Shown piece by piece: positions 16,008 through 58,164 of a stretch of DNA of 64,000 bases. The stretch's first letter is position 1; each line of letters starts with the position of its first letter. Source of the stretch: a bacterium (GTDB lineage: Bacteria > SAR324 > NAC60-12); NCBI GenBank assembly GCA_965233585.1, contig CBDDTI010000747.1, positions 352,001 to 416,000 on the forward strand. Direction: 5' to 3'. The translations under genes were made by a program, and so were the position numbers. Below the pieces are notes generated by a model, which saw only the letters and a list, made by a program, of their open reading frames with translations, did not search any database and had not been told where the DNA came from.

Positions 16008-16047
16008 CTGAGTTGGGACTTGTTTTTTTTTTTTGTACGTGCATAAT
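16008..16047 (+). promoter_or_regulatory. Promoter-like motif with T12 tract (shared with the SBBP genes)
   Basis: ctgagttgggacttg-T12-gtacgtgcataat matches the motifs at 40923 and 58083. Confidence 0.6.
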
Positions 16048-16165
16048 CTCTTCTGCTTGTTTGACTGTAATCTCATCTTGTTACAAAGATACCCTTTTTA
16101 TGAAACAACTCTTGGTTAGTCTGCTAGCTTGAGATTTTGCTGCTTGATGCAGAATCTCAAAACTC

Positions 16166-16425
16166 GCAATGAGATTGCGGATCAAGTCCGCAATGACGGC
16201 TGTGTGGAGATTGCGGGTCAGATCCTCAATGACACTTTTCAAGCCCGCAATGACGGTTTTGTGGAGATTGCGGATCAAGTCCGCAATGACGGCTGTGTGG
16301 AGATTGCGGGTCAGGTCCCGCAATGACGGTTTTGTGGAGATTGCGTGTCAGGCACGGAATGACGGGGAACGTCAGATGGCGTGTCAGGCACGGAATGACC
16401 AAAATCCACGCCCGCAATGACGGCT
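16166..16425. repeat. Tandem array of ~36-37 bp REP units
   Basis: gagattgcggatcaagtccgcaatgacgg(c/t)t(g/t)tgtg repeated with variants. Confidence 0.9.
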
Positions 16426-16555
16426 GTCATCAGGTCTTTGTTGTGATTTTTGAGTGTTGCAGTGTGAAACAAGCAAATGTTGTATGAGTCCCGTCCCGTG
16501 AGTCGCATCTCACATGAGGGGGCTTTTCTTTAAACCTCTATCCAAAGGATAATTT

Positions 16556-19500
16556 ATGAATCTGTTAAAAAGATTTGCTCAAATCAGCTCCATCGCCCTA
16601 GCTTCTGCGATGATTGCTTCTTGTGCCAGCGACTCCAGTAGTTCTGGCTCTTCTTCTGAAGCTGAAACGACCGAAAACCCGACCGCTCAACAAAAAAAGG
16701 CAGAGGCAAAGCCGTCATACGCTTATGCCAAAACTGCTTTTGATGCCAGCAGTGACGCAGACTCTATGTCTATGAAAGAGTGTCAAGGGCGTGCAGGCGT
16801 GGAAATCAAAATGGGCATAGACAAAAATGCCGATGGCAAGCTGGAAGGCGATGAGGTCGCAAAAACCGAATACGTCTGCGATGGGGAGAAAGGTGCTGCA
16901 GGCGCTGCTGGTGCAAAAGGCGACTACACCAAAGTCCACACTGTCAGCTTTGACGGAGCTGGAGCTGCTGCTGCTGGGCAAACCCTAGTCAAAGACAACA
17001 CGAAATTCAAACCAGCCGTCACTTATGCAGGCACAACAGCCGCTTACTGCCAAACTGTTGGAGGCGTCCAAGTCAATTTCTACACTGAAAGTGGAGACAC
17101 TGCAGGATTTGATGCCAAAGACACCGTCCTCAAAACCACTTACGTCTGTAATGGTGTTGCTGGGGCAAAAGGTGATAAAGGTGACACTGGCAACAACGCC
17201 CCTGCTCAACTTGCCTATCAAGCTAAGTTTACTAAGAATTTAGCCACTGGCGTTAAAGGTACATCAGTTGCTGATGTCAATGTCATCACTAAAACTGGAC
17301 AATCTGGCTACAGCCGTGTCCTTTTTGATTATGATGAGGATGTTGGTACCGATGGTGCTGATAGCGACGGTAACAAGGCTAATGATTTTGTGAAAATCGG
17401 AGTGTTGAATGATGGCAAAGCTAGTGTGTTGGAAAACTGGAGCGCTTTGGGTGTAGTAACTAACTATTACAAAACAACAGCAGGCACACCTCCAACTGTG
17501 TTCTTCAATGTGACTAATGACCTCTATTACGTCAATGCTGATGACACGGCTGTCAAAGTAGATTTAACTGCAACCATAAGCCAAATCGTTTCAGCAGCAA
17601 CAGGCGTCTTTGTCATTGATAATTCTGACGGTGCGAGCGGTCTTTTCTTTGTTAAAACAGATGGCACCGTTGAAAACCTCAAAGGAAAAGGTATGGATTT
17701 CACGGGCGAAACTCCTAAAAACATAGAAGTCGTTGGTGATACTTTGTTTCTCAATGATACTTCTACAAAAACAGCATCGTTTATCGCTTCTTCCAAAAAC
17801 ATTCGGGAAAACGTCGGAATCGTCACAGGAGGAAAGGGAGCAACACTGGCAGCAGTTACTTTAACAACAGGCAGAACCATTGCAACAGGAGACACCACAC
17901 TTGAGAAAGGAAAGACAGGAGTCTTTGTGATTGACAAAAAAACTGGAGCTGATAGCGATCTATTCTTTATTAAAACCGATGGCAGTGTTGAAAACCTCAA
18001 ACCAACAGGTATGGACTTCAAAGGTGCAACCCCAGCAAACAGAGTTGTCATTGGTGATACCTTGTTTCTCAATGATAGTACGCAAGCAGCAGCCACTGTT
18101 GCCAGCGGTAAAACTCTTGTTGCAAACGTCGGAATCGTCACAGGAGGAAAGGGAGCAACACTGGCAGCAGTTACTTTAACAGCAGGCAGAACCATTGCAA
18201 CAGGAGACACCACACTTAAGGAAGGAAAGACAGGAGTCTTTGTGATTGACAAAAAAACTGGAGTTGATAGCGATCTATTCTTTATTAAAACCGATGGCAA
18301 TGTTGAAAACCTCAAACCAACAGGTATGGACTTCAAAGGTACAGCTCCTACCTCAGCCGTAGTTGATGATACTTTGTTTCTCCATAGTAGTAACGACGCT
18401 GCAGTGCTTGCCACTGCAGGCACCGCAGCACTTGATGAAAAAATTGGAAGAGTCCAAGTAACAGGAAATTCTCCAAAACTAGAAGCAGTTGGAGTGGCAG
18501 CCGTAACAAAAGACAATGTCTCCTTTGTGAAAGGAGAGACAGGAATCTTTGTCATTAAAAGCACAGGTGGTGGTAGCAAACTTTACTTTGTTGGTAAAGG
18601 TCAAACAGACGATGCTGATAGCCTAGCACCAACAGGTATGGATTTCAAAGGCGAGACCCTTGTCACAAAAGCAGTTGACGATACTTTGTTTCTCACGACT
18701 CAAGGAGCCTCTGCAGTGGTCACTAGTGTTGGTACCGTTGAACTTACTAAAAAAGTCGCAAGAGCCGCTAAATTGAAAAACGGCAACGTTTCCAATCTAG
18801 CGTTAGTTACAGGATTAGCTGCTAGCACAGCAACCAATGTCTCCTTTGTGGAAGGAAAGACAGGAATCTTTGTGGTTGATAAAACTACAGGTGCTGATAG
18901 CAAACTTTACTTTGTTGGCAAAACTGACAATGCTGAAGACCTCACTGATAGCATAGATTTCAAAGGTAAGGCAGTGGCAAAAAAACAAGTTGTCAGCACT
19001 TTTGACAAAAATGGTGTTGCTACAGGAGACAAGCTACATCTTCTTGGCGATGGAACAAACGCAGGTACAACATACAAAGACAACCCTGGTATTGCCTTTT
19101 CAAGTGGTGAGACCAAACATCGCTTACTCAATCCACAACACGGCACTATCGTCGATAGGCAAGCAGTGCATTTTGGAGGCAAGTTGTATTTTGGCAGCGG
19201 TTCGTATCTCTGGGAAAGTGACGGAACAAAAGCAGGCACTAAAGTTCTTGGCAAGCACACTGTCACGTCTATCACCACAGACGGCACTGACGTTTATTTT
19301 GCAACATCGGCAGACCTTTATAAGCTCACTGTTTCTACTGGCGCCATTGCCACTTTTGGAGGCAGCAATGCTGCTGTTGGTGACATGACCCACCTCAAAG
19401 TGATTGATGGAAAACTTTTTGGTGTGAAGAAAGATGGATCTAACAAACTTGACTTGGTTTACGTCAAATCAGATGCCAATGCTGTTGTTGTTGGAAAATC

Positions 19501-20170
19501 TGATGGCGTTCTTGGCGATGTTGCTTCACTGCATGTGCTAGGTTCAGGAAACACTGCCAAAGTCATTGCTGTTGGTGCTAGCAAACTTGCTTATGCCGAT
19601 AAAGATGACGATGGTAGCGGTAATGACAAGAAAGCAACAGAAATCAAAAACGGTTCAAATGCTATTGCCGCAAAAAATCCTGTAGTTGCTGGTGATGTGT
19701 TGTTTTTCTTACAAGCTAGCAAAGCTCTCTTTGTGACTCAAGGTGCAACAGACACAACCTTTCAAGTGAAAGATGATGCTGGTGCAGTGAAAATTGGTAC
19801 CGTTGGTGCGTTCCCAGCCTCCAAAGTAGGCAGTTCTTACTATGTGCTAATTGACAAGAAATTGTACGAAGTTGATAAGTCTGATGGTAGTGCAGAGGTT
19901 GTAGATTATGGTGCTGATAGTGGTAGCAATTTGGCAGTGGTCAAGAAAGGTAGCGATTATTACTTGTTTGTCACTGGTCGTGGTGAGGTGTTTGTGAAAA
20001 AAGAAGCTGCTAATGAAGTTTTTAAAGCAACCAATCTCGCACGTTATGGGCTGACTGGAGTCGATCAACCCACTGTTGTTGGCAGTAAACTTTATTTCTT
20101 GGCAAATAGTAGCGCCAGTGCTTACTTTTCAAATCACGGAATAGAGTGGTTTTACACAGAACAGAAATAA
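16556..20170 (+). CDS. Large surface lipoprotein with collagen-like GxY stretches, ~105-aa repeats and ELWxxDGT-type propeller motif
   Basis: Lipobox MIAS/C; GIDKNADGKLEGDEV..YVCDG motif; GAAGAAGAKGD; YLWESDGTKAGT. DNA repeat 17809-18025 recurs 315 bp later. Confidence 0.85.
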   Translation: MNLLKRFAQISSIALASAMIASCASDSSSSGSSSEAETTENPTAQQKKAEAKPSYAYAKTAFDASSDADSMSMKECQGRAGVEIKMGIDKNADGKLEGDEVAKTEYVCDGEKGAAGAAGAKGDYTKVHTVSFDGAGAAAAGQTLVKDNTKFKPAVTYAGTTAAYCQTVGGVQVNFYTESGDTAGFDAKDTVLKTTYVCNGVAGAKGDKGDTGNNAPAQLAYQAKFTKNLATGVKGTSVADVNVITKTGQSGYSRVLFDYDEDVGTDGADSDGNKANDFVKIGVLNDGKASVLENWSALGVVTNYYKTTAGTPPTVFFNVTNDLYYVNADDTAVKVDLTATISQIVSAATGVFVIDNSDGASGLFFVKTDGTVENLKGKGMDFTGETPKNIEVVGDTLFLNDTSTKTASFIASSKNIRENVGIVTGGKGATLAAVTLTTGRTIATGDTTLEKGKTGVFVIDKKTGADSDLFFIKTDGSVENLKPTGMDFKGATPANRVVIGDTLFLNDSTQAAATVASGKTLVANVGIVTGGKGATLAAVTLTAGRTIATGDTTLKEGKTGVFVIDKKTGVDSDLFFIKTDGNVENLKPTGMDFKGTAPTSAVVDDTLFLHSSNDAAVLATAGTAALDEKIGRVQVTGNSPKLEAVGVAAVTKDNVSFVKGETGIFVIKSTGGGSKLYFVGKGQTDDADSLAPTGMDFKGETLVTKAVDDTLFLTTQGASAVVTSVGTVELTKKVARAAKLKNGNVSNLALVTGLAASTATNVSFVEGKTGIFVVDKTTGADSKLYFVGKTDNAEDLTDSIDFKGKAVAKKQVVSTFDKNGVATGDKLHLLGDGTNAGTTYKDNPGIAFSSGETKHRLLNPQHGTIVDRQAVHFGGKLYFGSGSYLWESDGTKAGTKVLGKHTVTSITTDGTDVYFATSADLYKLTVSTGAIATFGGSNAAVGDMTHLKVIDGKLFGVKKDGSNKLDLVYVKSDANAVVVGKSDGVLGDVASLHVLGSGNTAKVIAVGASKLAYADKDDDGSGNDKKATEIKNGSNAIAAKNPVVAGDVLFFLQASKALFVTQGATDTTFQVKDDAGAVKIGTVGAFPASKVGSSYYVLIDKKLYEVDKSDGSAEVVDYGADSGSNLAVVKKGSDYYLFVTGRGEVFVKKEAANEVFKATNLARYGLTGVDQPTVVGSKLYFLANSSASAYFSNHGIEWFYTEQK

Positions 20171-20229
20171 GCTGACTCTTTCTGGCTTGTGCATATCGGG
20201 TGCAATCTCCTTAAATTGCCCCTTGCGTT

Positions 20230-20691
20230 TAAGTCATTGCAGGCGTGTTTTTGTCATAGCTCACCTTGAAAACCGTCATTGCGGGCTTGACCCGCAATCT
20301 CATTCTTTTTTTGAGATTCCGCATCAAGTGCGGAATGACAGAGGGCGTTTGAGATTCCGCATCAAGTGCGGAATGACGGAGGACTTTTGAGATTCCGCAT
20401 CAAGTACAGAATGACGGAGGACTTTTGAGATTCCGCATCAAGTGCGGAATGACGGAGGGTCGCACAGAATGACGAAAAGCCAAGCCAACTCTTACCTTTC
20501 TCTTGCTTGTGTGGGGTGCTGTCTTTCAGAGACTGTCCTTGCACAAGTCAGCCTTTTCCTTTCTCATTCCCCTCTTTTTGAGGGGTCTCACCTTCTTTCA
20601 CCTGATAACTTGTTTTTGAGTCCCTACACCACCGTCATTGCGGGCGTGTCTTGGTCATTCGGAGCGAAAGAACGTCACCCCTGTGAAAACA
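20230..20691. repeat. REP/REPIN-like palindrome cluster
   Basis: Four tandem gagattccgcatcaagtgcggaatgac-type units plus other hairpins. Confidence 0.9.
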
Positions 20692-21461
20692 GGCAGTGTT
20701 CACTTGGTGTTATTGCATGTGAGAGTGAATTTGAGGAATGGGGATGAGAAGTTGTCATCATTGTGGGAGTCAGAATGACATCAAGAATGGAAGTTGCAAA
20801 GGAGTGCAGAGATATGTTTGCAAATCATGTGGGAGGTCGTTCAGTTCAAATGGGTTGAGAATCCCACTAGAGACGAAGCGTCAAGCGTTAGAAATGTCTG
20901 TCAATAGTGTAGGCATCAGAAAGATAGCTCGTTTTGTGCAGGTGTCTCCAACTTCTGTTCTCAACTGGATCAAAAAAGCCAGAGTGTCTCAAATCCCAAA
21001 AGACGCACCAAGTTTCCATGAACAAGTAGATAGTATAGAGATGGATGAGATCTATACTTTTGTTCAAAAAAAAGTCAAAGAGTAGCCGTTTGGACAGCAG
21101 ACTCTCGTAGAAAGCAATGTGTGATTGCCTTTGTGATAGGCAAAGGATTGGCAGCTGCCCAAAAGTTGTATGCACTAGTCAAAGAACAGCGACCTAGAAT
21201 GAAGACGATCTATACCGATGCCAACTCATGCTATCAAGTGGCATTTGCTCAATGACAAATTCAACAGAACCACGAAATAGGCAAGAGAAATACTCATCTC
21301 ATTGAATCTTCTAATTCTTCCATCAGAGATAACCTAGCTCGCTTGATGAGAACATCTAAACGACATTCTAAAACTTTGGACATGCTGGAACACTCTCTCA
21401 AACTCTTCTTTGACTATAAAAGACTTGAAAAATATCATGCCAACACTAAGTGAACACTGCC
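20692..21461 (+). mobile_element. IS1-family element, copy 1 (defective)
   Basis: Terminal IRs ggcagtgttcactt...aagtgaacactgcc; InsA-like ORF 20738-21085; InsB frame has a premature TGA at 21253. Confidence 0.9.
20738..21085 (+). CDS. IS1-family InsA-like N-terminal part (Zn ribbon + HTH)
   Basis: CHHCGS..KNG...QRYVCKSC, GIRKIARFVQVSPTSVLNWIKK, EMDEIYTFVQKK. Confidence 0.85.
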   Translation: MGMRSCHHCGSQNDIKNGSCKGVQRYVCKSCGRSFSSNGLRIPLETKRQALEMSVNSVGIRKIARFVQVSPTSVLNWIKKARVSQIPKDAPSFHEQVDSIEMDEIYTFVQKKVKE

Positions 21462-21469
21462 TCACAGAA

Positions 21470-22240
21470 GGCAGTGTTCACTTGGTGTTGTTATTGCATG
21501 TGAGAGTGAATTTGAGGAATGGGGATGAGAAGTTGTCATCATTGTGGGAGTCAGAATGACATCAAGAATGGAAGTTGCAAAGGAGTGCAGAGATATGTTT
21601 GCAAATCATGTGGGAGGTCGTTCAGTTCAAATGGGTTGAGAATCCCACTAGAGACGAAGCGTCAAGCGTTAGAAATGTCTGTCAATAGTGTAGGCATCAG
21701 AAAGATAGCTCGTTTTGTGCAGGTATCTCCAACTTCTGTTCTCAACTGGATCAAAAAAGCCAGAGTGTCTCAAATCCCAAAAGACGCACCAAGTTTCCAT
21801 GAACAAGTAGATAGTATAGAGATGGATGAGATCTATACTTTTGTTCAAAAAAAAGTCAAAGAGTAGCCGTTTGGACAGCAGACTCTCGTAGAAAGCAATG
21901 TGTGATTGCCTTTGTGATAGGCAAAGGATTGGCAGCTGCCCAAAAGTTGTATGCACTAGTCAAAGAACAGCGACCTAGAATGAAGACGATCTATACCGAT
22001 GCCAACTCATGCTATCAAGTGGCATTTGCTCAATGACAAATTCAACAGAACCACGAAATAGGCAAGAGAAATACTCATCTCATTGAATCTTCTAATTCTT
22101 CCATCAGAGATAACCTAGCTCGTTTTATGAGAAAATCTAAACAACATTCTAAAACTTTGGACATGCTGGAACTCTCTCAAACTCTTCTTTGACTATAAAA
22201 GACTTGAAAAATATCACACCAACACCAAGTGAACACTTCC
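21470..22240 (+). mobile_element. IS1-family element, copy 2 (defective), tandem to copy 1
   Basis: Separated from copy 1 by 8 bp (tcacagaa); same premature TGA (22034); mutated right IR (cacttcc). Confidence 0.9.
21519..21866 (+). CDS. IS1-family InsA-like N-terminal part
   Basis: Protein identical to 20738-21085. Confidence 0.85.
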   Translation: MGMRSCHHCGSQNDIKNGSCKGVQRYVCKSCGRSFSSNGLRIPLETKRQALEMSVNSVGIRKIARFVQVSPTSVLNWIKKARVSQIPKDAPSFHEQVDSIEMDEIYTFVQKKVKE

Positions 22241-22545
22241 CTGACAAGAGGGGTGTCCCAAAGGGACGGGGTGTTTCAATTTCCCTCTCTTTTTTTCTGT
22301 CACTTGAGTGCTTGACACGGAATCTCAAAAAAAGGAGTTGTTGGCAAAAAGACAAGGGAGATTGCGGGTCAAGCCCGCAATGACTTTTTTTCAAGGTCAG
22401 CAATGATGAAAAGACACGCCTGCAAAACCTCTCAGTCATTCCGCACTTGATGCAGAATCTATCGTCAACATCGCATGGATTCCTGCTTTCGCAGGAATGA
22501 CGGCAGTACAGAGATTGCTCGTCAAGGTGAGCAATGACAGCGAAA
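22241..22545. repeat. REP/REPIN-like palindrome cluster
   Basis: GTCATT/AATGAC-bounded hairpins and a gaggggtgtcccaaagggacggggtg element. Confidence 0.85.
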
Positions 22546-22553
22546 TCATGCCT

Positions 22554-23723
22554 TTAGAAAAAGGGCAGTAGTTGCTCAATGATAGCAGCACCGCCAAGTA
22601 TTGTGCCAATGTTACTGCCGATGTTAGCAAAAATGACAATCAACAAAACACGAGTGATCTTATTTTTCCAGAAGCCAGACAACGAAAAGACATCATCAGA
22701 TAAACTTTCAAAATCCTTGACTTGAGGTTTTCTGACGTAAAGTTCCACAAATCCTGCAACCCAACCTGCAGCTAACATTGGATTGAGTGAAGTAATGGGT
22801 GCAGCAATAAATGCGGCAATAATCGTCAAAGGGTGTGCCAGTGCAAACAAAGTTCCCAGTGCTGACAAGCCTCCGTTAATCAAAACCCAACGCCACACCA
22901 GTTCATAACTCTGTTGCAAATCTATTTTGGTAAATCCGTAAATAAACAATCCAATAATGGCAGCAGGGATTCCCCATTTTAAAATTTTTGATAGATTGCT
23001 TGAATCAGGCAAGGTCTCTAGCTCGCTACATGATGGGGCATCTTGCTCTGATTCAAGATGTCGTTTGACCCCCTCTAAATGACCTGCTCCAATGACTGCA
23101 ACAATCTTGCTTCCTTGTGCATGACGGATTTTTTCTGCAAGATATTGGTCTCTTTCATCAACAACAACTTGCTTCACCGTAGGAGAGATGTCTTCAAACT
23201 CTCGCATGGATTCAGAAAGGATGTCTCGTGATTGGAATTGTTCTATTTGATCTTGGTCAATTTGTTGGTTGTTAAAGATGGAGGAAAAAAAGTAGGTGAG
23301 TGTTTTAGACTTTTCTTTGGCAGGCATCATTCGCCAAGCCCTTTTAAATGTGACTTCAATAGGACGGTCTGCCATAATAACCTGTGCATGATGAGTTTTG
23401 GCTGTTTGAATCGCCTCCAACATTTCTTGACCCGGAGACACTCCCAAACCCTCACCTAGCCTTTTTTGAAAAGACCTTAAAATCAAATTTGCAAGCAGTA
23501 ATGCTGTTTTGTTTTCTTTCACCACTTTGAAAATATCTTGTTCTTGCCAATGCGTTTGACCAGTCAGTGCATCAAATCGGCTCTGGCATAACTCCACACA
23601 GACACAATCAGGCTTTTCCTGCTCTATGACCTCTCTCACTTCTACTACACTTGCTTGTGAAATATGTATAGAACCGATTAAAATGATTTTTTTATTGTCA
23701 ACTGAAAGAATATGATGCGCCAT
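22554..23723 (-). CDS. TraB/GumN (pheromone shutdown) family membrane protein
   Basis: IGSIHIS, CVELCQSR, PGQEM, DERDQYLA, VIGAGH, APITSLNP motifs. Confidence 0.9.
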   Translation of the reverse strand: MAHHILSVDNKKIILIGSIHISQASVVEVREVIEQEKPDCVCVELCQSRFDALTGQTHWQEQDIFKVVKENKTALLLANLILRSFQKRLGEGLGVSPGQEMLEAIQTAKTHHAQVIMADRPIEVTFKRAWRMMPAKEKSKTLTYFFSSIFNNQQIDQDQIEQFQSRDILSESMREFEDISPTVKQVVVDERDQYLAEKIRHAQGSKIVAVIGAGHLEGVKRHLESEQDAPSCSELETLPDSSNLSKILKWGIPAAIIGLFIYGFTKIDLQQSYELVWRWVLINGGLSALGTLFALAHPLTIIAAFIAAPITSLNPMLAAGWVAGFVELYVRKPQVKDFESLSDDVFSLSGFWKNKITRVLLIVIFANIGSNIGTILGGAAIIEQLLPFF

Positions 23724-24467: not shown

Positions 24468-24582
24468 TCCAAGTTATTGTTCGCTCAATATAGTCTTTTC
24501 AGAAAGACGTTTTTTCAAAAAGACGTCAAGATTTAAAAAATCCTTAATGATTCAAGCTGGGAAAAGTTTTTATAGTGGAAGG

Positions 24583-27458: not shown

Positions 27459-27484
27459 GTCTAAAAAATCTAAAAAATAGATAG

Positions 27485-40275: not shown

Positions 40276-40429
40276 GTTTTTATCAAATCATCTTTCTTTA
40301 TAGCTAATCAGGTTCTCAGCACAATACGTTGCTCTCTTATCATTCCTAATTCTTTAGAACGAGTTCCTGTTTAGGCTGTAAAACTTTAAACCTTGCCCTG
40401 CAACCTCACTTGTCTTTTTTCCAAACTTC

Positions 40430-40862
40430 CCGTCATTGCTCACCTTGCCCACAATTTCTTTTTGTTTTTTGAGATTCCGTGTCAATCAAGGAATGACTGA
40501 ATCGTCATTGCTGACCTTGAAAATTGTCATTGCGTGCTTGACCCGCAATCTCTCTTTTTTTCTTCAAACACAGGACAAACACTTGGGTTTGTCCCTACGT
40601 TGTGACCTGATGGCTTGCCTTTTCGTCATTCTGTGCTTGACCCGCAATCTCTCTTTTTTTCTTCAAACACAGGACAAACACTTGGGTTTGTCCCTACGCT
40701 GTCACCTGCTGACGTGTCTTGGTCATTGCGGGCTTGACCCGCAATCTTGTTTTGTTTTTGGGATTCCGCATCAAGCACGGAATGACTGCTACTGTCATTC
40801 CTGCGAAAGCAGGAATCCATGCTTGGTTTGGTGATAGATTCCGCATCAAGTGCGGAATGACC
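40430..40862. repeat. REP cluster including GTAG-type hairpins
   Basis: GTCATT-family units plus two copies of aggacaaacacttgggtttgtccctac. Confidence 0.85.
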
Positions 40863-40922: not shown

Positions 40923-40963
40923 CTGAGTCGTGGCTTGTATTTTTTTTTGTACTTGCATAGTAT
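40923..40963 (+). promoter_or_regulatory. Promoter with T9 tract upstream of SBBP gene 1
   Basis: TTGTAT-17 nt-TAGTAT with a homopolymer T run in the spacer. Confidence 0.7.
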
Positions 40964-41090: not shown

Positions 41091-42710
41091 ATGTTTGCAT
41101 GTCATACAATCCAGATTTTCTCAAAAGCACTTGTTGCCTGCACCGATGCTTTTGCATCATTTCTTAAACCTTCTTCTTTGAAGAAATGTTCAATCCTGCT
41201 TGGTTTCAGTGTCCTTGTTGCCTGCACTGACAAACGTAGTCCATCAGATGAAAACACTGCCTCTGTCTCACCAAAGCCACCAAAACCATCAACTAGATTG
41301 TCAGTGTCAGCCAGAACATTCACTTTTACTGAAGAATCAGGCAAGAGTTACGAATGTTCCAAAGATGGAGGCACAACTCCTACTGATTGCAGCAGTCCTT
41401 TTAGTTTTGGAGACAATGCCATTGCCAAAGACAAGCTCTGCGTTCGTGTCAAAGCATCAGGTAATACGCCTGCTTCTGATTGGAGTTGCTACAACCAAGC
41501 CATTGCTGAACACTTGGCTAAACAATGGTCTCGTCTCCTTGGCACTGGTGGTATTGATATTGGATTTGGAGTGAGTGTGGATTCTAAAGGAGCAATCTAT
41601 GTGACAGGATACTCTTCAGGAGCTTTTGATGGAAAGACCAATCAAGGAAGTGCTGACTTGTTTTTAATCAAGTATGACAGTTCAGGCAACAAGCAGTGGT
41701 CTAAATTGCTTGGCAGTAGCAATTTTGATTTTGGCTGGGCAGTGAGTGTGGATTCAGCAGACAATGTCTATGTGTCAGGAATGCTTGCAGGAAATTTTGA
41801 TGGACAGACCAATCAAGGAGGTAGGGACATGTTTTTAATCAAGTATGATGCTTCAGGCAATAAGCAGTGGTCTAAGTTGGTTGGCACTAGCGGTACTGAT
41901 CAAGGATATGGGGTGAGTGTGGATTCAGCAGGCAATGTTTACGTCACTGGAGAGTCTGAGGGAAATTTTGATGGACATACCAATTCAGGAGGTAAGGACA
42001 TGTTTTTAGTGAAGTATAACACTTCAGGTGTCAAGCAGTGGTCTAAGTTGGTTGGCACTAGCAGTGATGATGAAGGATTTGGAGTGAGTGTAGATTCATC
42101 AGACAATGTCTATGTGACTGGAGAGTCTGAGGGAAATTTTGATGGACATACCAATTCAGGAGGTAAGGACATGTTTTTAATCAAGTATGACAGTTCAGGC
42201 AACAAGCAGTGGTCTAAATTGCTTGGCAGTCGGTTTCGTGATGAAGGATTAGGAATGAATGTGGATTCATCAGGCAATGTTTACGTGACAGGATTCTCTG
42301 CAGGAGCCTTTGATGGACACACCCATTCAGGAAATGAGGACATGTTTTTAATCAAGTATGATACTTCAGGCAACAAGCAGTGGTCTAAGTTGGTTGGCAC
42401 TAGCAGTGGTGATAGAGGAAAAGGAGTGAGTGTAGATTCAGCAGGCAGTGTTTACGTGACAGGATACTCTGCAGGAGCTTTTGATGGACACACCAATCAA
42501 GGAAGTACTGACATGTTTTTAATCAAGTATGACAGTTCAGGTGTCAAAAAGAGGTCAAAACTGCTTGGCACTAACGCTACTGATGAAGGATTAGGAGTGA
42601 GTGTGGATTCATCAGACAATGTCTATGTGACAGGATACTCTCAAGGAGCTTTTGATGGACACACCCGTTCAGGAGACAATGACATGCTTTTAATCAAGTT
42701 TGGGAAGTAG
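41091..42710 (+). CDS. SBBP-repeat 7-bladed beta-propeller lipoprotein, paralogue 1
   Basis: Lipobox VLVA/C; seven ~57-aa repeats QWSKLxG...VSVDSxGNVYVTG...DMFLIKYD. Confidence 0.9.
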   Translation: MFACHTIQIFSKALVACTDAFASFLKPSSLKKCSILLGFSVLVACTDKRSPSDENTASVSPKPPKPSTRLSVSARTFTFTEESGKSYECSKDGGTTPTDCSSPFSFGDNAIAKDKLCVRVKASGNTPASDWSCYNQAIAEHLAKQWSRLLGTGGIDIGFGVSVDSKGAIYVTGYSSGAFDGKTNQGSADLFLIKYDSSGNKQWSKLLGSSNFDFGWAVSVDSADNVYVSGMLAGNFDGQTNQGGRDMFLIKYDASGNKQWSKLVGTSGTDQGYGVSVDSAGNVYVTGESEGNFDGHTNSGGKDMFLVKYNTSGVKQWSKLVGTSSDDEGFGVSVDSSDNVYVTGESEGNFDGHTNSGGKDMFLIKYDSSGNKQWSKLLGSRFRDEGLGMNVDSSGNVYVTGFSAGAFDGHTHSGNEDMFLIKYDTSGNKQWSKLVGTSSGDRGKGVSVDSAGSVYVTGYSAGAFDGHTNQGSTDMFLIKYDSSGVKKRSKLLGTNATDEGLGVSVDSSDNVYVTGYSQGAFDGHTRSGDNDMLLIKFGK

Positions 42711-42718: not shown

Positions 42719-43109
42719 GTAGGGACAGACCAACGTGTCTGTCTTCTTATACAGAACTTTGAACTTAGTCATTCCTGCGAAAGCAGGAATCTATCTTTTT
42801 TTCTTCATTGCTCACCTTGAAAGCCGTCATTGCTGACCTTGACCCGCAATCTCTTCTTTTGTTTTTTTGAGATTCCGTATCAAGCACGGAATGACGAGAG
42901 GACGTTTGAGATTCTGCATCAAGTGCGGAATGACAAAGAATATCTTCATTTTTCCCTAATTTCCTCACTTCCTTCGTCATTGCGGGCTTGACCCGCAATC
43001 TCACTTTTTCTGATTCCCCTTCACTGAAGGGGTGCTTGAGCAAGCAAGCGGGGTAGTCCAAGAGGGAAATTGAAACACCCCGTCCCTTTTGGGACACCCC
43101 TCTTGTCAG
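42719..43109. repeat. REP cluster (GTAG-type, GTCATT-type, CCCCTC-type)
   Basis: gtagggacagaccaacgtgtctgtc, REPIN pairs, acaccccgtcccttttgggacacccctc. Confidence 0.85.
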
Positions 43110-43882
43110 GGCAGTGTTCACTTGGTGTTGGTATAATATTTTTCAAGTCTTTTATAGTCAAAGAAGAGTTTGAGAGTGTGATCCAGCATGTGAAAAGTTT
43201 TAGAATGTCGTTTAGATTTTCTCATAAAGCGAGCAAGGTTATCCCTAATAGAAGAGTTTGAAGATTCAATGAGGTGAGTCTTGTCCTTGCCTATTTCATG
43301 CTTCTCTGGAATTCGGAGTTGCGCAAATGCGACTTGATAGCAAGAGTTCGCATCTGTATAAATCGTTTCAATTCTAGCTCGTTGTGCTTTGACGAGTGCA
43401 TAGAGCTTCTTGGCAGCTGCTAATCCTTTGCCTATCACAAAGGCAATCACACATTGTTCTCTACGAGAGTCTGCTGTCCAAACGACTACTCTTTGACTTT
43501 TTTTTGAACAAAAGTATAGATTTCATCCATCTCTATGCTATCTACTTGTTCATTGAAACTTGCTGCTCCCTTTGGGAGTTGAGCCACTCTGGCTTTTTTG
43601 ATCCAGTTGAGAACAGAAGTTGGAGACACCTTGAGAAAACGAGCTATTTTTCTGATGCCTACGCTATTGACATACATCTCTAAGGCTTGACGCTTCGTCT
43701 CTAGTGGGATTCTCAACCCATTTGAACTGAATGACCTCCCACATGATTTGCAACCATACCTCTGCACTCCTTTGTAACAACCATTCTTGATATAATTCTG
43801 ACTTCCACAATGATGACAACTTCTCATATTCATTCCTCAAATTCACTCTCACATGCAATAACAACACCAAGTGAACACTGCC
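43110..43882 (-). mobile_element. IS1-family element, copy 3 (apparently intact) with 9-bp TSD
   Basis: IRs ggcagtgttcacttggtgttg at both ends; tcttgtcag duplicated at 43101-43109 and 43883-43891. Confidence 0.93.
43118..43833 (-). CDS. IS1-family transposase InsAB via -1 frameshift at A8 run
   Basis: InsA 43486-43833 ends FVQKK; the -1 frame continues SQRVVVWTA...IYTDANSCY...IESSNSSIRDNLARF with no stop. Confidence 0.85.
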
Positions 43883-46041: not shown

Positions 46042-46043
46042 AG

Positions 46044-49129: not shown

Positions 49130-49287
49130 ATACTAATTCTCCAGTTTGTGAAAACACATCTTAAAAAGTAGGAATGAGGTTGGAAGCCAAACAAATTCAC
49201 TTGAGATGACAAATCAACAAAACATTTGATTCAAATGATTCAAAAGAGTCTTTGACTCTTGAAAATTGGCAAGCAGAGGCTATCACT

Positions 49288-49878: not shown

Positions 49879-49999
49879 GTCGTCATTTTGTGAGGCACTT
49901 CCAGCTCAACACGATTTAAGTTATGATATGGTCAGGATTTTGTTACAATTCTAAGTACTAGGAATTTTTTAACTCGTTCAAACAATTAGGAGTCATTCA

Positions 50000-50521: not shown

Positions 50522-50523
50522 AA

Positions 50524-51015: not shown

Positions 51016-51024
51016 CAACACCTC

Positions 51025-51486: not shown

Positions 51487-51488
51487 CG

Positions 51489-52574
51489 ATGAAACCATTC
51501 CTTTTCTTCTGGGTTTTCTTTCTTTATTACTCTGTCCATGCAAATTCTCTTGCAGACATCACCTTCCCAATTCAAGATCAATTTGACAAAATTCATCTTC
51601 AATTCCATCAAGCCATAGAATCTGAACCTGTCATCACAGTGAGTGAAGGAGCTATCAACATTTACCTTGCATCTAGTTCACAATCACCCAAGCCTAGCAA
51701 AACTTACAAACCGATCCAAGAACACCTTGTGCATTCTGCTGTTGTGATTCAAAACAAAAACTCAATCCGCATTGATATTGCTCTTAAATCGCTGTGGAAT
51801 GTCCAAGACCAAATTCAGCTAGAACGAGATGCCACCTCTCTTTTTTTAGCAATCAATAGAAATGCTTTGATTGAGTCATTACAATCCAAAAAAGGCAATT
51901 CTCAACTCCAAGAAGATGAAGTCAGGCAAAGGATTCAACAAGATTATTTATTGACGGTGCCTGCTTCTAGTAATAAGCCCTCAAATAACAATTTTTACAC
52001 AAATTCACTGACTAATTCTGAGGACTGGCTTCCCTTTTCTATCACTGTCTCTCTGACTTTACTGGCGTTTCTTTTGTTCCTTTACATCATTTTGTATCTG
52101 TATCAAAAGTTGTCTTCTGGCAAGATAGGTAGTTCAGGAAGTTTAAAAATACAAGTTGCGGCAACTTATCACCTTGGGGCAAAGCAAAAAGTGGTGATTT
52201 TACAAATAGAAGATCGTTTTTTTGCCTGTGGTGTCACTCTGCAAAGTATCAATTTTCTCACAGAAGTTGGAGGGGCTAAGGATCAGGCATTTCTCAACGA
52301 CCTTTCTTTGACCAATGGAATCCAGCTGGAAGCACGTTCTGAGTTTGAACAAGTTTTGAAAGCGGCTCAAGCACCTCATCAGGAGTCTCCTTCAAAAGAA
52401 CTTCCCAAACAAAATGTTCCCACAACAGAAGCACCACTGACAGAGGAAAGTTTAGTTGTGAAAGCACCCCAAAAAGAAGCAGCAACACCATTCAGCCATG
52501 ACCCTGCAATGAATCAATTTGCAAAGGTTTTGAATCAAAAAATCCAAAAACTCAAACCTCTTGGGTCAACATGA
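51489..52574 (+). CDS. fliO: Extended FliO-domain protein
   Basis: Located between fliN and fliP; TM segment followed by LKIQVAATYHLGAKQKVVIL..FACGVT; long N-terminal periplasmic part. Confidence 0.7.
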   Translation: MKPFLFFWVFFLYYSVHANSLADITFPIQDQFDKIHLQFHQAIESEPVITVSEGAINIYLASSSQSPKPSKTYKPIQEHLVHSAVVIQNKNSIRIDIALKSLWNVQDQIQLERDATSLFLAINRNALIESLQSKKGNSQLQEDEVRQRIQQDYLLTVPASSNKPSNNNFYTNSLTNSEDWLPFSITVSLTLLAFLLFLYIILYLYQKLSSGKIGSSGSLKIQVAATYHLGAKQKVVILQIEDRFFACGVTLQSINFLTEVGGAKDQAFLNDLSLTNGIQLEARSEFEQVLKAAQAPHQESPSKELPKQNVPTTEAPLTEESLVVKAPQKEAATPFSHDPAMNQFAKVLNQKIQKLKPLGST

Positions 52575-53311
52575 TGCAAAAAGTTTTATTGCTTGTTGTT
52601 TTGACATCGTTCGCATCAGTGCTACATGCACAGATTCCGGGAATCAAGATTGGTGTTGACTCTGCCTCTAATCCAGAAGAAGTTGTCGGTTCGTTGCAGG
52701 TCATTTTTTTACTGACCATTCTCACCTTTGCCCCTGCTATTTTGGTGATGACCACTTCATTCACACGGTTTGTCATCGCTTTGTCTTTTTTAAGGCAAGC
52801 ATTAGGGACACAGGCAGTGCCTTCTAACCAAATCATTATCGGACTTTCTCTTTTTTTGACGTTATTTGTCATGCGTCCTGTCTGGGACGAAGTCAATAAT
52901 GTTGCTCTTGAACCTTATTTACAAGGAGACGTCTCGCAAGAAGTGTTTCTTGAAAGGGCATCGTTGCCATTGAAAAACTTCATGAGAAAATTCACCCGTG
53001 AAAAAGACCTTGCTTTGTTTTTGAGGATTTCTAACCAGCCGAATCCCCGCACCATCAACGACGTTCCGATTTGGGTGATGATTCCTGCCTTCATCATCAG
53101 TGAGCTGAAAACAGCCTTTCAAATCGGATTTTTGATTTACATGCCGTTTTTGGTGATTGACATGGTGGTGTCTTCTATCTTAATGGCAATGGGTATGATG
53201 ATGCTCCCACCTGTGATGATTTCTTTACCTTTCAAACTGATGTTGTTTGTCTTAGTGGACGGCTGGCATTTGATTGTTGGCTCACTTGTCAGAACTTTTG
53301 TAGATTTATGA
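52571..53311 (+). CDS. fliP: Flagellar export gate protein FliP
   Basis: MTTSFTR, PAFIISELKTAFQIGF, MGMMMLPP, LVDGW. Confidence 0.97.
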   Translation: MMQKVLLLVVLTSFASVLHAQIPGIKIGVDSASNPEEVVGSLQVIFLLTILTFAPAILVMTTSFTRFVIALSFLRQALGTQAVPSNQIIIGLSLFLTLFVMRPVWDEVNNVALEPYLQGDVSQEVFLERASLPLKNFMRKFTREKDLALFLRISNQPNPRTINDVPIWVMIPAFIISELKTAFQIGFLIYMPFLVIDMVVSSILMAMGMMMLPPVMISLPFKLMLFVLVDGWHLIVGSLVRTFVDL

Positions 53312-53366
53312 AGAAAAATTTAAATCAAGTGAAAGATTTTTTGTTTGCTAATCTAACCAAGTATTA

Positions 53367-53552
53367 ATGACAATTATGAAAAAATTAGCTTTTTTAGTGA
53401 TTGGATTGGTTGTTGCTGGCTTAATCATTAGAGGATTGATTTCTCTCATTTTCTGGGGAGGCGCTGCAGTTTTATGTTATTTCATTTATAAAACCTTATC
53501 GGGGGGCAAAAAAAAGTTGCAAGGTAAGGGGAAAGACCGAGAGAAGTTATAA
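53367..53552 (+). CDS. Small membrane protein
   Basis: Two hydrophobic stretches and a basic tail. Confidence 0.6.
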   Translation: MTIMKKLAFLVIGLVVAGLIIRGLISLIFWGGAAVLCYFIYKTLSGGKKKLQGKGKDREKL

Positions 53553-53562
53553 AACTGCGAAG

Positions 53563-54201
53563 TCATAAAACGGCTTTGATTCTTTCAAAGACCTCATCAA
53601 GTTCTCCTATGCCGTCAACTTGTACCAGTTTGTTTTGCTTTTGGTAGTAGTCAATTAACGGGCTGGTCTGTTCGTGATAAGTTTGAAGGCGTTGCCTAAC
53701 CACTTGCTCTTGGTCATCTTTTCTTTGAATCAGAGGTTCTCCTGTGAGGTCATCTTGATCTTCTACTTTGGGAGGGTTGAAGTCCACATGATAAATCCTT
53801 CCGCTGTCCTCATGGATTCTTCTACCTGTGATCCTTTTGACCACCACATCATCTTCAACTGCAAGGTAAATCACCAAATCAACAGCCTGATTTTGTTCAG
53901 CTAGCATTTGGTCAAGTCCTTCTGCCTGACCAATGGAGCGGGGGAAGCCATCTAGTAGGTATCCATTTTGACAATCACTTTGTGTCATTCTTTCTTGAAT
54001 CACATCAAGGACAAGCCTGTCTTCCACTAATTTTCCAGAATCCAGTATTGATTTGACCTGAAGACCCAATGCGGTACCTTGAGCCACAGCAGAACGGAAA
54101 ATGTCTCCTGTGGAAAGTTGTATGATGTTTAAATGTTGTGTCAATTTTTTTGACTGCGTCCCTTTTCCTGCTCCTGGAGCCCCCAGTAAAATGACCCTCA
54201 T
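53563..54201 (-). CDS. adk: Adenylate kinase
   Basis: GAPGAGKGTQ, LDGFPR, LID domain. Confidence 0.97.
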   Translation of the reverse strand: MRVILLGAPGAGKGTQSKKLTQHLNIIQLSTGDIFRSAVAQGTALGLQVKSILDSGKLVEDRLVLDVIQERMTQSDCQNGYLLDGFPRSIGQAEGLDQMLAEQNQAVDLVIYLAVEDDVVVKRITGRRIHEDSGRIYHVDFNPPKVEDQDDLTGEPLIQRKDDQEQVVRQRLQTYHEQTSPLIDYYQKQNKLVQVDGIGELDEVFERIKAVL

Positions 54202-54674
54202 GCTCTTTCTCCCATTTTGAATAATTTAAAAATTTGAATCACTAAAAAAACTATAACCATTTTACTTACTTTGGCATTTTTTTCACCTTTTATGTTTTGA
54301 GCAGGTTTTGACAAGGGGTGTTTGTTTTTTTGAGCATCTCACCTTCTCGTTTTTCACGTTGGACTTCTAGCTCTTTTTTCCCATTTGAAAAACTCGGCTT
54401 CACGCTGGGCTTTGCTTTTGATGTCACGATATTTCTTAAAAAGAGAATCATCTGCCTTCCTTTCCAAAATGATTTGTTTCCAGCCACAACTTCCACTCCT
54501 CAAAAAAGCCCGTCTTTTCAAAAACTAACCAGCTTGCTTCTTTGACCGATTGCTCAAGCCATCAAAAATAATCAAAAAAAACGATTTTGAAGTTGCATTT
54601 GTTTTTCAAGGTTTGCTAAAATCGTCACCTTGTTTTTGTTCGTTCTGATTAACCATTTATCAAAGGAGATTTTT

Positions 54675-55722
54675 ATGTTAGAACAAATCAAATCCATTCA
54701 ATCCCGATTGTCAGGGGGGGGCTTTTTATGACAAGATAATCGTTTTCCTGACACTTCTGATCTTGGCAGGTTGCACACCGCCTGCTGAAGAAGAGGAAGA
54801 GGAAAACACCCAGAACCAAGCCACCTGCGAGGTCTCCTCTGGCAATTCTTTGACAACAGGTCAAGAACTGGTTGCCAACCTCACCTGCACCGCATCAACC
54901 ATCTACCAAGGTAAAAAATTAAGCATCACTTACGATGAAAGTTTGACTTCCTTGAAGCTGGTCGTTGGAGAAAAAGAGACAGTCGGTCAAAGCGGAACAC
55001 TCACCCACACCTTACCCAAACAAGAAAAATTTCAAGCCAAGTTGAAGCTCACAGGAGTCACAGCAGGCAAGGGGCAACTCAAGTTCAACATCTTGAGAAA
55101 AGAATCAAACTGGGCTTTTACAGTAGTCAACAACGAACTTGACATTTCCAAATACACTTGGAAACAAGTCGCCTCTTCAGCAGGTTGGTCTGCTCGGGAT
55201 TCTCACACAAGCGTCGTGTTCAATCACAAAATCTGGGTCATAGGAGGTTCTGCTAGTCCTTTTGTCAAGAAAAACGATGTTTGGAGTTCTTCTGATGGTA
55301 AGAATTGGACAAAAGCTACAGATTCAGCAGGTTGGTCTGCTCGGGATTCTCACTCAAGCGTTGCATTCAATAACAAAATCTGGGTGCTAGGAGGAATTGC
55401 TGGTGGCAGGAAAAACGATGTTTGGAGTTCTTCTGATGGTAAGAATTGGATAAAAGCTACAGATTCAGCAGGTTGGTCTGCTCGTTCTGCTCACGCAAGC
55501 ATTGCGTTCAACAACAAAATCTGGGTCATAGGAGGTTCTGATGGTGGCAAGAAAAACGATGTTTGGAGTTCTTCTGATGGTAAGACTTGGACAAAAGAAA
55601 CTTCTGCAGCAGGTTGGTCTGCTCGTGCTGGACACACAAGCGTCCTGTCCAATCACAAAATCTGGGTCATAGGAGGTTCTGATGGTGGCAGGAAAAACGA
55701 TGTTTGGGAATTTGGTCCCTAA
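54675..55722 (+). CDS. Kelch-repeat lipoprotein, frameshifted at G8 tract (phase-OFF or pseudogene)
   Basis: RBS aaggag plus ATG 54675 reads MLEQIKSIQSRLSGGGFL*. The +1 frame after G8 (54714-54721) reads FYDKIIVFLTLLILAG/C and later four GWSAR..H..KIWVIGG..NDVW repeats. Confidence 0.85.
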
Positions 55723-55754
55723 ATTCCGCCTCACGTCAACTCATCTTCTCTAAA

Positions 55755-55795
55755 AAAACACCTCGCTTGAATGACCAAGCGGGGTGGTTTCTTCT
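55755..55795 (+). terminator. Likely intrinsic terminator after the Kelch gene
   Basis: cacctcgctt-gaatgacc-aagcggggtg hairpin followed by a T-rich run. Confidence 0.5.
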
Positions 55796-55819
55796 TACGC
55801 AAAACCAAACCTTCCTTTT

Positions 55820-56290
55820 CGTCATAGCACATCTTGAAAATCGTCATTGCGGGCTTGTTTTTTGGTCATTGCGGGTTTAACCGACAATCTCTATACAACC
55901 GTCATTGCTCACCTTGACCCGCAATCTCATCTTGTTTTTTTTCAACAATTCCTTTTTTTGAGATTCTGTATCAAGCACTCAAGTGACGGGAGGGTTTGGC
56001 TGGGTTGTTTTTTCTCGTCATTGCGGGACCTGACCCGCAATCTCATCTTGTTTTTTTCAACAATTCCTTTTTTTGAGATTCTGTATCAAGCACTCAAGTG
56101 ACGGGAAGGGCTTTGAGATTCTGAATCTCCCTTTCAATTCCTCTTCAGTGAAGGTCAACAAACCAGCGCTTGTTGCTAGCGGCAAAGCCTGACGGGATAG
56201 TTTTGCACAAAAAAAGAATGAGATTGCGGGACAAAGTGTGGTTGTCTTGTTTTGTATAAGAAGACAGACACGTTGGTCTGTCCCTACCAA
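55820..56290. repeat. REP/REPIN cluster between convergent lipoprotein genes
   Basis: Duplicated REPIN (55900-55990 and 56017-56105) and GTAG-type hairpin at 56260-56288. Confidence 0.85.
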
Positions 56291-56295
56291 AAACA

Positions 56296-57912
56296 CTACC
56301 TCCCAAACTTGATTAAAAGCATGTCATTGCCTCCTGAATGGGTCTTCCCACCAAAATTTCCTCCAGAAAATCCTGTCACGTAAACATTGCCTTTAGAATC
56401 CACACTCACTCCTAACCCTTGATCATCCTTGTCAGTGCCAAGCAGTTTTGACCTCTTCTTGACGCCTGAACTGTCATACTTGATTAAAAACATGTCAGCA
56501 CTTCCTTGATTGGTTTTTCCATCAAAAGCTCCTGAAGAGAATCCTGTCACATAGACATTGCCTGCAGAATCCACACCCACTCCGTATCCCAAATCATCAT
56601 CGCTAGTGCCAACCAATTTAGACCACTGCTTGACACCTGAACTATCATACTTGATTAAAAACATGTCATCGCCTCCTTGATTGGTCTTTCCATCAAAAGC
56701 CCCTTCAGAGAGTCCTGTCACGTAAACATTGCCTGAAGCATCCACGCTCACTCCATGTCCTCTATCATCACCGCTAGTTCCAACCAACTTAGACCACTGC
56801 TTGTTGCCTGAACTGTCATACTTGATTAAAAACATGTCCTCTTTTCCTGAATGGGTCTTTGCATCAAAAGCTCCTTTAGAATATCCTGTCACGTAAACAT
56901 TGCCTGCTGAATCTACACTCACTCCTAATCCTTCATCAAAACCGCTAGTTCCAAGCAGTTGAGACCACTGCTTGACACCTGAAGTGTTATACTTCACTAA
57001 AAACATATCCCTCTTTCCTGAATTGGTCTTCCCATCAAAATTTCCTTCAGAGAATCCCGTCACGTAAACATTGCCTGCTGAATCCACACTCATTCCCTCT
57101 CCTATATCATTATCGTCAGAGCCAAGCAATTTAGACCACACCTTGTTGCCTGAAGTATCATACTTGATTAAAAACACGTCAGCACCTCCTTGATTGGTCT
57201 TTCCATCAAAACTTCCATCAGAGAATCCTGTGACATAGACATTATCTGATGAATCCACACCCACTCCTAATCCTTTTGTGGAAAGGCCACTGGTAACCAA
57301 CTTAGACCACTGCTTGTTGCCGTCCTTGTCATACTTCACTAAAAACATGCCTTCAAATGCTGGATTGGTCTTTCCATCAAAATTGCCATCAGAAAATCCT
57401 GTCACGTAAACATTGCCTTTAGAATCCACACTCACTCCTAGTCCATCATCACGAGATCGACTGCCAAGCAGTTCAGACCATTGTTTAGCCAAGTGTTCAG
57501 CAATGGCTTGGTTGTGGCAAGCCCACTCAGAAGCAGGCGTATTGCCTGATGCTTTCACACGAACACAGAGCTTGTCTTTGGCAATCGCATCATCTCCAAG
57601 ACTAAAAGGGCTACTGCAATCAGTTGGAGTTGTGCCTCCATCTTTGGAACATTCGTAACTCTTGCCTGAAGTGGTGGTAAAAGTGAGTGTTCTGGCTGAC
57701 ACTGACAAGCTAGTTGGTGGCTTGGGTGGCTTGGTAGCTTCAGCAGTGTTTTCATCTGATGGACTACGTTTGTCAGTGCAGGCAACAAGCACACTGAGAC
57801 CAAGCAAGATTGAACATTTCTTCAAAGAAGAAGGTTTAAGAAATGATGCAAAAGCATCGGTGCAGGCAACAAGTGCTTTTGAGAAAATCTGGATTGTATG
57901 ACATGCAAACAT
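56296..57912 (-). CDS. SBBP-repeat 7-bladed beta-propeller lipoprotein, paralogue 2
   Basis: N-terminus nearly identical to 41091-42710; seven SBBP blades. Confidence 0.9.
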   Translation of the reverse strand: MFACHTIQIFSKALVACTDAFASFLKPSSLKKCSILLGLSVLVACTDKRSPSDENTAEATKPPKPPTSLSVSARTLTFTTTSGKSYECSKDGGTTPTDCSSPFSLGDDAIAKDKLCVRVKASGNTPASEWACHNQAIAEHLAKQWSELLGSRSRDDGLGVSVDSKGNVYVTGFSDGNFDGKTNPAFEGMFLVKYDKDGNKQWSKLVTSGLSTKGLGVGVDSSDNVYVTGFSDGSFDGKTNQGGADVFLIKYDTSGNKVWSKLLGSDDNDIGEGMSVDSAGNVYVTGFSEGNFDGKTNSGKRDMFLVKYNTSGVKQWSQLLGTSGFDEGLGVSVDSAGNVYVTGYSKGAFDAKTHSGKEDMFLIKYDSSGNKQWSKLVGTSGDDRGHGVSVDASGNVYVTGLSEGAFDGKTNQGGDDMFLIKYDSSGVKQWSKLVGTSDDDLGYGVGVDSAGNVYVTGFSSGAFDGKTNQGSADMFLIKYDSSGVKKRSKLLGTDKDDQGLGVSVDSKGNVYVTGFSGGNFGGKTHSGGNDMLLIKFGR

Positions 57913-58043
57913 TTGATGGACTCCATGTAGAGGTTAGACAAAAAGACAACACCCAACGGGTGCTTTCGTGGGAACAACTCTTGGCTTGGAAAAAAAACAT
58001 CATCTGATTTTTAAGGAAAAGAGTTGAATAAAAAACAAAGCCT

Positions 58044-58083
58044 ATACTATGCAAGTACAAAAAAAATACAAGCCACGACTCAG
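58044..58083 (-). promoter_or_regulatory. Promoter with T8 tract upstream of SBBP gene 2
   Basis: TTGTAT-16 nt-TAGTAT; otherwise identical to 40923-40963. Confidence 0.7.
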
Positions 58084-58164
58084 AATTTTAAGGGATTTTT
58101 TGGTTTTTAAGGAATTTTTAAGATTTTTCAAAAAAATTTGAAAAAAAAGGAGTCAGTGAAGAAA

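Follow-up and report, generated by a model that had tools for sequence, protein, structure and literature searches.

A candidate repertoire of homopolymer-switched surface lipoprotein genes bordered by repetitive extragenic palindromes in an uncultured SAR324 bacterium

The Neisseria surface-protein genes porA, opc, and opa are switched by homopolymers, and phase variation of this kind has, to our knowledge, been described almost exclusively in cultured pathogens that are adapted to a host. Simple-sequence contingency loci in Neisseria, Haemophilus, Campylobacter, and Helicobacter, among them sabA of H. pylori with its promoter T-tract, carry the homopolymer in a promoter region or a 5' coding region of a surface-protein gene, and slipped-strand mispairing gives rise to mixed populations (PMC4081817). 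For the Vlp family of Mycoplasma hyorhinis, PMC10502178 (citing Citti and Wise 1995) describes a homopolymer in the promoter region of every member, where insertions and deletions switch transcription, together with conserved 5' ends and variable, repetitive gene bodies. Here, we analyzed a 64,000-nucleotide stretch of DNA (the window) from an assembly of the SAR324 lineage NAC60-12 (GCA_965233585.1; contig CBDDTI010000747.1, positions 352,001 to 416,000 of the forward strand). Four lipoprotein genes in the window, numbered 1 (16556-20170, forward strand), 2 (41091-42710, forward), 3 (54675-55722, forward), and 4 (56296-57912, reverse), are each associated with a homopolymer tract and with arrays of repetitive extragenic palindromes (REPs). 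We consider it fairly probable that they belong to a repertoire of about 42 lineage-specific, modular surface lipoprotein genes under two portable homopolymer switch cassettes, with the REP arrays likely serving as terminators or insulators.

In layout, the closest described counterpart is the Vlp family (PMC10502178), in which all members of a lipoprotein family carry a promoter tract and combine conserved 5' ends with variable bodies. The likeness is one of layout, and no sequence relation is expected. Unlike Vlp, the genes described here reside in a diderm, flagellated host, have a poly-T tract of 8 to 12 nucleotides (nt), encode Kelch, SBBP, and fn3 proteins, and come with an additional, translational poly-G cassette and with REPs. 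As in simple sequence repeat contingency loci, the homopolymer occupies a promoter spacer or a 5' coding region, and its length differences alter spacing (12 to 16 nt) or reading frame among paralogues; unlike those scattered loci, two conserved cassettes extend over about 40 paralogous lipoprotein genes in an uncultured environmental or eukaryote-associated bacterium. Literature searches returned nothing pairing SAR324 with phase variation and nothing joining contingency loci, metagenome-assembled, and homopolymeric, and the contingency-locus papers that were found concern, judged by title, known pathogens. The design matches known homopolymer contingency systems and makes the repertoire a strong candidate for one, distinguished by its scale, its two conserved cassettes, a 16-nt spacing rule, and the concentration of REPs. 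If this is correct, an uncultured lineage with about 40 such genes in 3 Mb would show homopolymer phase variation on a comparable or even larger scale. Its rules would be clear and testable (a gene is on with G9 and off with G8, and the full promoter state has a 16-nt spacer), REP arrays would be tied with unusual sharpness to variable surface genes, and a defined set of loci would let metagenomic reads show population heterogeneity directly. Gene callers would be liable to miss or truncate such genes.

The first cassette is an upstream motif common to genes 1, 2, and 4, TTG..Tn-GTAC(G/T)TG-CATA(A/G)T, with tracts of T12, T9, and T8, respectively. At gene 1 (16020-16047, forward strand) it consists of TTG, T12 (16023-16034), GTACGTG, and CATAAT, with a 16-nt spacer; at genes 2 (40935-40961, forward) and 4 (58046-58071, reverse) it consists of TTGTA, T9 (40940-40948) or T8 (58059-58066), GTACTTG, and CATAGT, with spacers of 15 and 14 nt. 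Genome-wide counts here and below refer to the organism's own DNA, defined as the 2.96 Mb held in total by the six REP-bearing contigs (C745, C746, C747, C295, C729, and C723) of a 12.0-Mb bin of 747 contigs; the genome is 92% complete. The full motif has 22 genomic copies, all on these contigs and with tracts of T8 to T12, and the genes downstream are nearly all lipoprotein genes, with leaders of several families (MQKLINRC..LFAC, MFACHTIQ..LVAC, MFAFRT..IGC, MNLLKRF..IASC, MNMLKKF..LSC, and others). A stricter version of the pattern gave 21 matches, compared with 0 for the reversed control, and the motif pattern was not found in the 63 same-order genomes scanned.

Of the 22 copies, 12 have 16 nt between the TTG hexamer and the -10-like hexamer, 3 have 15 nt, 5 have 14 nt, 1 has 13 nt, and 1 has 12 nt; none has more than 16 nt. 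A 16-nt spacer is reached by T12 after TTG, by T11 after TTGG, and by T10 after TTGTA or TTGCG, so the spacing is conserved and not the tract length, as a promoter spacer would predict. Both the copy with a 12-nt spacer and one of the five with a 14-nt spacer head 5'-degenerate genes. Within the 2.96 Mb, 17 of the 25 A/T runs of at least 10 nt lie in the motif, including all seven T12 runs. We infer that the motif is an active promoter, with TTG as the -35 element, CATAAT or CATAGT as the -10 element, and the poly-T tract as the spacer; when strand slippage adds or removes T residues, this spacing, with 16 nt as the full state, would change and turn transcription up or down.

The second cassette, found at gene 3, would instead act on translation. 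Here, a predicted sigma-70-like promoter read from the sequence (54593-54622, forward strand; TTGCAT, 18 nt, TG-n-TAAAAT) precedes an AAGGAG ribosome-binding site (RBS) and ATG start (54663-54677, forward) that are conserved among paralogues. A G8 tract (54714-54721, forward) lies out of frame in the part of the signal-peptide coding sequence that specifies the n-region, 39 nt past the ATG at 54675. The ATG frame ends at 54729-54731, after 18 codons; the lipobox frame is open to 55722 and is reachable only by one G fewer or two more. With one G fewer, gene 3 would read MLEQ...FYDKIIVFLTLLILAGC. The 5' region of this Kelch gene has 18 paralogues in the genome, several of them in tandem arrays, which have in common TG-n-TAAAAT (17 of 18), AGGAG, the ATG, MLEQIKSIQ, the G-tract, and an LAGC-type lipobox. 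The element TGCTA(A/G)AAT is likewise conserved in 17 of 18 paralogues, the remaining one having TGCTACAAT.

Frame states in this family divide into 10 copies in frame and 8 out of frame. In the standard context, frame follows tract length, the four copies with G9 all being in frame and the four with G8 all being out of frame; two additional G9 copies are out of frame owing to another indel. In four copies the tract has decayed completely; these all stay in frame and encode differing residues in its place (RGGA, RRNS, RRGF, and RRRS), indicating that the upstream ATG is the real start and that the G-run is dispensable for the protein. A pure G-tract is retained in 10 of the 18 copies, and the paralogue comparison argues that the run is maintained at the DNA level. 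Seven of the eight out-of-frame copies have an uninterrupted body of 346 to 442 codons and no other lesion, and such intact bodies fit reversible switches rather than decaying pseudogenes. The Kelch-gene cassette family accounts for 10 of the organism's 31 G/C runs of at least 8 nt, and a related family for one more. A cassette of fixed promoter, RBS, and ATG followed by poly-G within the signal-peptide coding region would work as a translational switch, with G9 reading into the lipobox (on) and G8 stopping after 18 codons (off). The family appears confined to this lineage: the N-terminal domain of the Kelch lipoprotein has 35 copies in the genome and was found in 0 of 44 same-family genomes, and the DNA of the 5' cassette has no match among 40 relatives. 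The only full-length relative from outside that a protein search identified is P0008 (54% identity), whose leader is similarly long but lacks the residues encoded by the G-run.

The original prediction placed a homopolymer at a control position of each of the four window genes, three in a promoter spacer and one in a signal-peptide coding region, and the T12, T9, T8, and G8 tracts lie at just such positions; genome-wide, the poly-T motif and the poly-G cassette recur in the 22 and 18 copies described above. By pattern, 38 of the 42 genes downstream of the cassettes have a lipobox. Their bodies are assembled from fn3, Kelch, SBBP, laminin-G-like, and Lcl_C modules (Pfam) and from unknown domains, and identical leaders or cassettes are found on bodies with different domain sets. 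The products are probably surface exposed, and in living populations the tracts presumably gain and lose residues often enough to be useful.

REP arrays adjoin all four genes, as had been predicted, and seven were mapped. One lies upstream of the gene 1 motif (15350-15850; families D3, D4, D9, and D10, with three terminator-like copies), one between that motif and the start codon (16160-16425; family D12), and one downstream of gene 1 (20249-20500; families D3 and D5). A repeat search placed the others upstream and downstream of gene 2 (40380-40861 and 42825-43040), between genes 3 and 4 (55817-56100), and upstream of gene 4 (58150-58460). The organism has 466 REP palindromes, which are grouped into 207 arrays and frequently paired in opposite orientations about a T-rich spacer, the commonest cores being ATTCCGCACTTGATGCGGAAT and ATTGCGGGTCAAGCCCGCAAT. 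The predicted enrichment at surface-protein genes is strong: a REP is nearby at 37 of 43 target genes (a set that includes one false target, dnaA) compared with 189 of 2017 other genes. Similarly, gaps of at least 300 bp hold REPs in 48 of 61 target-adjacent cases versus 63 of 437 others, and 181 of the 369 intergenic REPs adjoin the 42 targets.

These palindromes resemble two described classes of repeat. The dRS3 element of Neisseria has the consensus ATTCCC-N8-GGGAAT. Like dRS3 and the neisserial intergenic mosaic elements (NIME), the REPs are short inverted repeats, here ATTCCG/ATTGCG-N9-CGGAAT/CGCAAT, whose arrays gather beside variable surface-protein genes; unlike them, they have a consensus that differs from that of dRS3, and no IS110-type transposase was found in the genome. 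As with REPs and bacterial interspersed mosaic elements (BIMEs) of Enterobacteria and Pseudomonas, there are hundreds of intergenic imperfect palindromes with opposed pairs, T-rich spacers, and terminator-like features. In contrast to those, half of the intergenic copies adjoin 2% of the genes, and no REP-associated tyrosine transposase (RAYT) was found. One REP orientation is T-tailed and terminator-like, and the first REP downstream of a gene is T-tailed in 78 cases and opposite in 37. The most likely role of the arrays is that of terminators or insulators; the duplications from which the gene families arose may, in addition, have left them as by-products or used them as substrates.

The cassette anatomy, the gene families, the states of frame and spacing, and the enrichment are direct observations; their interpretation as reversible switches has to be weighed against several other findings. 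In 22 copies a tract lies between TTG and CATAAT, where a Vlp-type arrangement would have -35 and -10 elements, yet a consensus promoter scan calls none of the three poly-T motifs in the window, whose -35 elements match at only three of six positions. An upstream TTGACT/TTGGCT hexamer offers a second possible register, making the assignment of on and off states from T-tract length uncertain. The motif of gene 1 is separated from the start codon by 508 nt that include a REP array; the corresponding distances in paralogues are 447 and 794 nt. Fisher p-values for the REP enrichment exaggerate its strength because paralogues are not independent, although the effect is still large. Within-population length variation is assessable only on low-depth contigs (depth 3 to 5) from 4 runs of one study and two samples; at the T8 tract these include contigs with one and two additional T residues, which are neutral on switching since paralogous T9 and T10 promoters can cross-map. 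No orthologous tract is comparable because the relatives are too distant, as illustrated by P0008 and by the adenylate kinase, for which the best match in a metagenome scan is 48% identical.

The tract differences could also be static, being fixed indels of old paralogues, in which case the out-of-frame and short-spacer copies would be young pseudogenes or weak genes without reversible switching. Cassette flanks are only 90 to 95% alike in the seven closest pairs, so differences between paralogues could indeed be old fixed changes; that five of these pairs differ in tract length is too weak to use. Several members are clearly degenerate (C746:325515; C746:288558, with an ATA start and truncated at 234 amino acids [aa]; C746:638969; and C747:469053), and MutS and MutL are present and intact, so there is no mutator background. 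The contigs of the 4 runs contain no indel at the G8 or T9 tract, a weak point in that contigs drop rare variants. We nevertheless regard static divergence as unlikely: all but one of the eight out-of-frame poly-G copies are free of other lesions, frame state in the standard context tracks a single G, the tract has stayed pure in most of the poly-G family though the encoded residues are free to vary, and the genome's longest tracts are gathered at these control positions. Much less probable still is that homopolymer errors in the assembly consensus produced the apparent frame and spacing differences. Three contigs of 0.6 to 1.07 Mb do suggest long reads, which miscall homopolymers, and the T-tract spacer deviations are all in the shorter direction. 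However, comparable tracts elsewhere lie in intact open reading frames (ORFs), with 16 of 20 other G/C runs of at least 8 nt and 21 of 48 other A/T runs of 9 to 11 nt located mid-ORF with the frame intact (one possible split gene), which makes assembly error unlikely, and a short-read contig of run X4 crosses the G8 tract without an indel.

A further question is whether the REP arrays are NIME-like recombination machinery through which the lipoprotein genes are duplicated, swap cassettes, and undergo gene conversion. A role in recombination is possible, but we think this account rather improbable. The enrichment beside target genes persists after controlling for gap length, array content differs between paralogues, cassettes and bodies are paired in a mosaic fashion, and SBBP paralogues share patches of 99 to 100% identity. 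Against this, neither a RAYT Y1 transposase (PF01797; 0 matches) nor an IS110-type transposase was found in this 92% complete genome, and the 2:1 orientation bias and T-tails fit terminators. Contig joints at REPs have sides of only 20 to 31 nt, which we take as repeat collapse, and co-duplication of REPs with genes would yield equal enrichment. The original prediction combined on/off switching with repeat shuffling; comparison of paralogues supports the switching half, whereas shuffling through REPs is not borne out, given the terminator-like orientation and the transposases that were not found. A broader reading would extend the repertoire to about 47 loci with combinatorial surface variation, in which three cassettes (poly-T, poly-G, and a CCGCAAT heptamer) are recombined onto interchangeable adhesin-like bodies and REP/BIME arrays at the cassette boundaries serve both as insulators and as recombination sites. 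Taken as one joint proposition, this is doubtful; if true, the organization would surpass that of known pathogens, whose contingency loci are scattered.

For the reading that we favor, of some 42 genes under two cassettes, the four window genes supply the protein context. The original prediction called all four lipoproteins, and their lipoboxes (IASC, LVAC, LAGC, and LVAC in genes 1 to 4) agree. It also called all four beta-propellers, which holds for genes 2, 3, and 4. Gene 2 (539 aa) has a GGAG RBS 8 nt before its ATG and a blade period of 171 nt, and gene 4 (538 aa) is its paralogue; both encode SBBP beta-propeller lipoproteins with 6 to 7 SBBP repeats (E values of 3e-55 and 4e-54), the Pfam SBBP scores (PF06739) being 184 and 181 bits, respectively, versus a cut-off of 20.5 bits. 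In gene 3, the Cys codon of the lipobox is at 54772-54774 and Kelch repeats follow (E value of 4e-23), with a PF01344 match of 81 bits over 54763-55722 versus a cut-off of 20.1 bits. Gene 1 encodes 1204 aa with internal 315-nt repeats up to 96% alike and has two paralogues, of 1236 and 1268 aa. The ELWxxDGT propeller repeats predicted for it are not supported: Pfam finds DUF7151 only, and no family of NCBIfam, a library that includes an ELWxxDGT model, matched. A single-sequence AF2 model of gene 1 is all-beta with a predicted local distance difference test (pLDDT) score of 43, too low to use, and its ESM Atlas matches are at most 0.90, to unnamed clusters, and not usable.

A further likeness is to the Leptospira LipL53-type SBBP propeller lipoproteins (NCBIfam NF047494), with an alignment over residues 144-537; the differences are a score of 252.9 bits, under the 400-bit cut-off, and an N-terminal stretch of 140 residues that is particular to this genome. 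A contig scan of other genomes returned matches limited to the SBBP repeat part. SBBP paralogues are homologous from some 200 nt ahead of the ATG as far as the stop codon. The ratio of nonsynonymous to synonymous substitution rates is 0.76 to 0.82 in the SBBP blades versus 0.30 to 0.33 in the leader and N-terminal domain (three of six pairs usable, the others being excluded for a coordinate error), which points to relaxed or diversifying evolution and is not proof of positive selection. The SBBP leaders (41091-41228 and 57775-57912) contain two lipobox-like segments, ..FSKALVAC|TD.. and ..FSVLVAC|TD.., that look like a tandem duplication of part of the signal peptide, and the MFAFRT family has a third such unit. 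In the MQKLINRC genes, a G7 run was considered as a frameshift site in C747:469238 and was rejected, the frameshift being located elsewhere.

The window is an ordinary chromosomal region of a diderm, flagellated bacterium, in which the four lipoprotein genes are dispersed among genes encoding ValRS, TGT, PBP1A, RodA/FtsW, BamA, FliL/N/O/P, adenylate kinase, and RecC. An Rfam scan of the window returned no family, and no RNA runs are listed among the runs containing the stretch. Taxonomic placement belongs to the 2.96-Mb organism because ValRS is single-copy and 54 to 62% identical to that of same-family genomes. The remaining 741 small contigs of the bin, about 9.05 Mb, contain no REPs, have poly-G/C runs of up to 31 nt, and show a very different homopolymer spectrum. 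Their mean coverage by open frames of at least 100 codons is 0.34 (40 of the 741 contigs sampled) versus 0.89 to 0.94 in three of the six own contigs. These 741 contigs look like eukaryotic DNA that was binned with the bacterium.

Several further elements of the window and genome were recorded alongside the repertoire. Short insertion sequence IS1-like elements occur at 20738-21085, 21519-21866, and 43118-43833 of the window, with InsA-like and InsB-like ORFs (115 and 110 aa, respectively) whose Pfam matches are slightly under the cut-offs. About 35 copies of at least 85% identity, and a second family at 33%, are spread genome-wide, several near lipoprotein genes. A BsaWI-like restriction endonuclease gene and two N6/N4 DNA methyltransferase genes are located at 879-1643, 9403-10443, and 63186-63992, and a 140-nt tandem duplication of 99% identity (family D19; 9151-9430) lies at the end of a 2-hydroxyacid dehydrogenase gene, ahead of a methyltransferase gene.

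Outside both cassette families, further long G/C tracts are possible switches, being located either at the 5' end of a long ORF or where a gene appears to be frameshifted midway: C295:21866 (C13), C729:57424 (C14), C746:532648 (G9), C747:876597 (C8), C746:776286 (C9), and C745:319800 (G9). In addition, heptamer repeats (GATTGCG/ATCCGCA)n, with n of 8 to 24, occur at C745:167236, C746:71141, C746:488283, C747:156519, and C295:101577. All five loci adjoin a conserved TTGACT-17-TATAAT-like promoter and an ATG, and the repeat unit matches the REP core; they are candidates for a third class of slipped-strand switches. Further repeats are present at C747:846356, with a unit of 8 nt, and at C295:240617, with another 7-nt unit.

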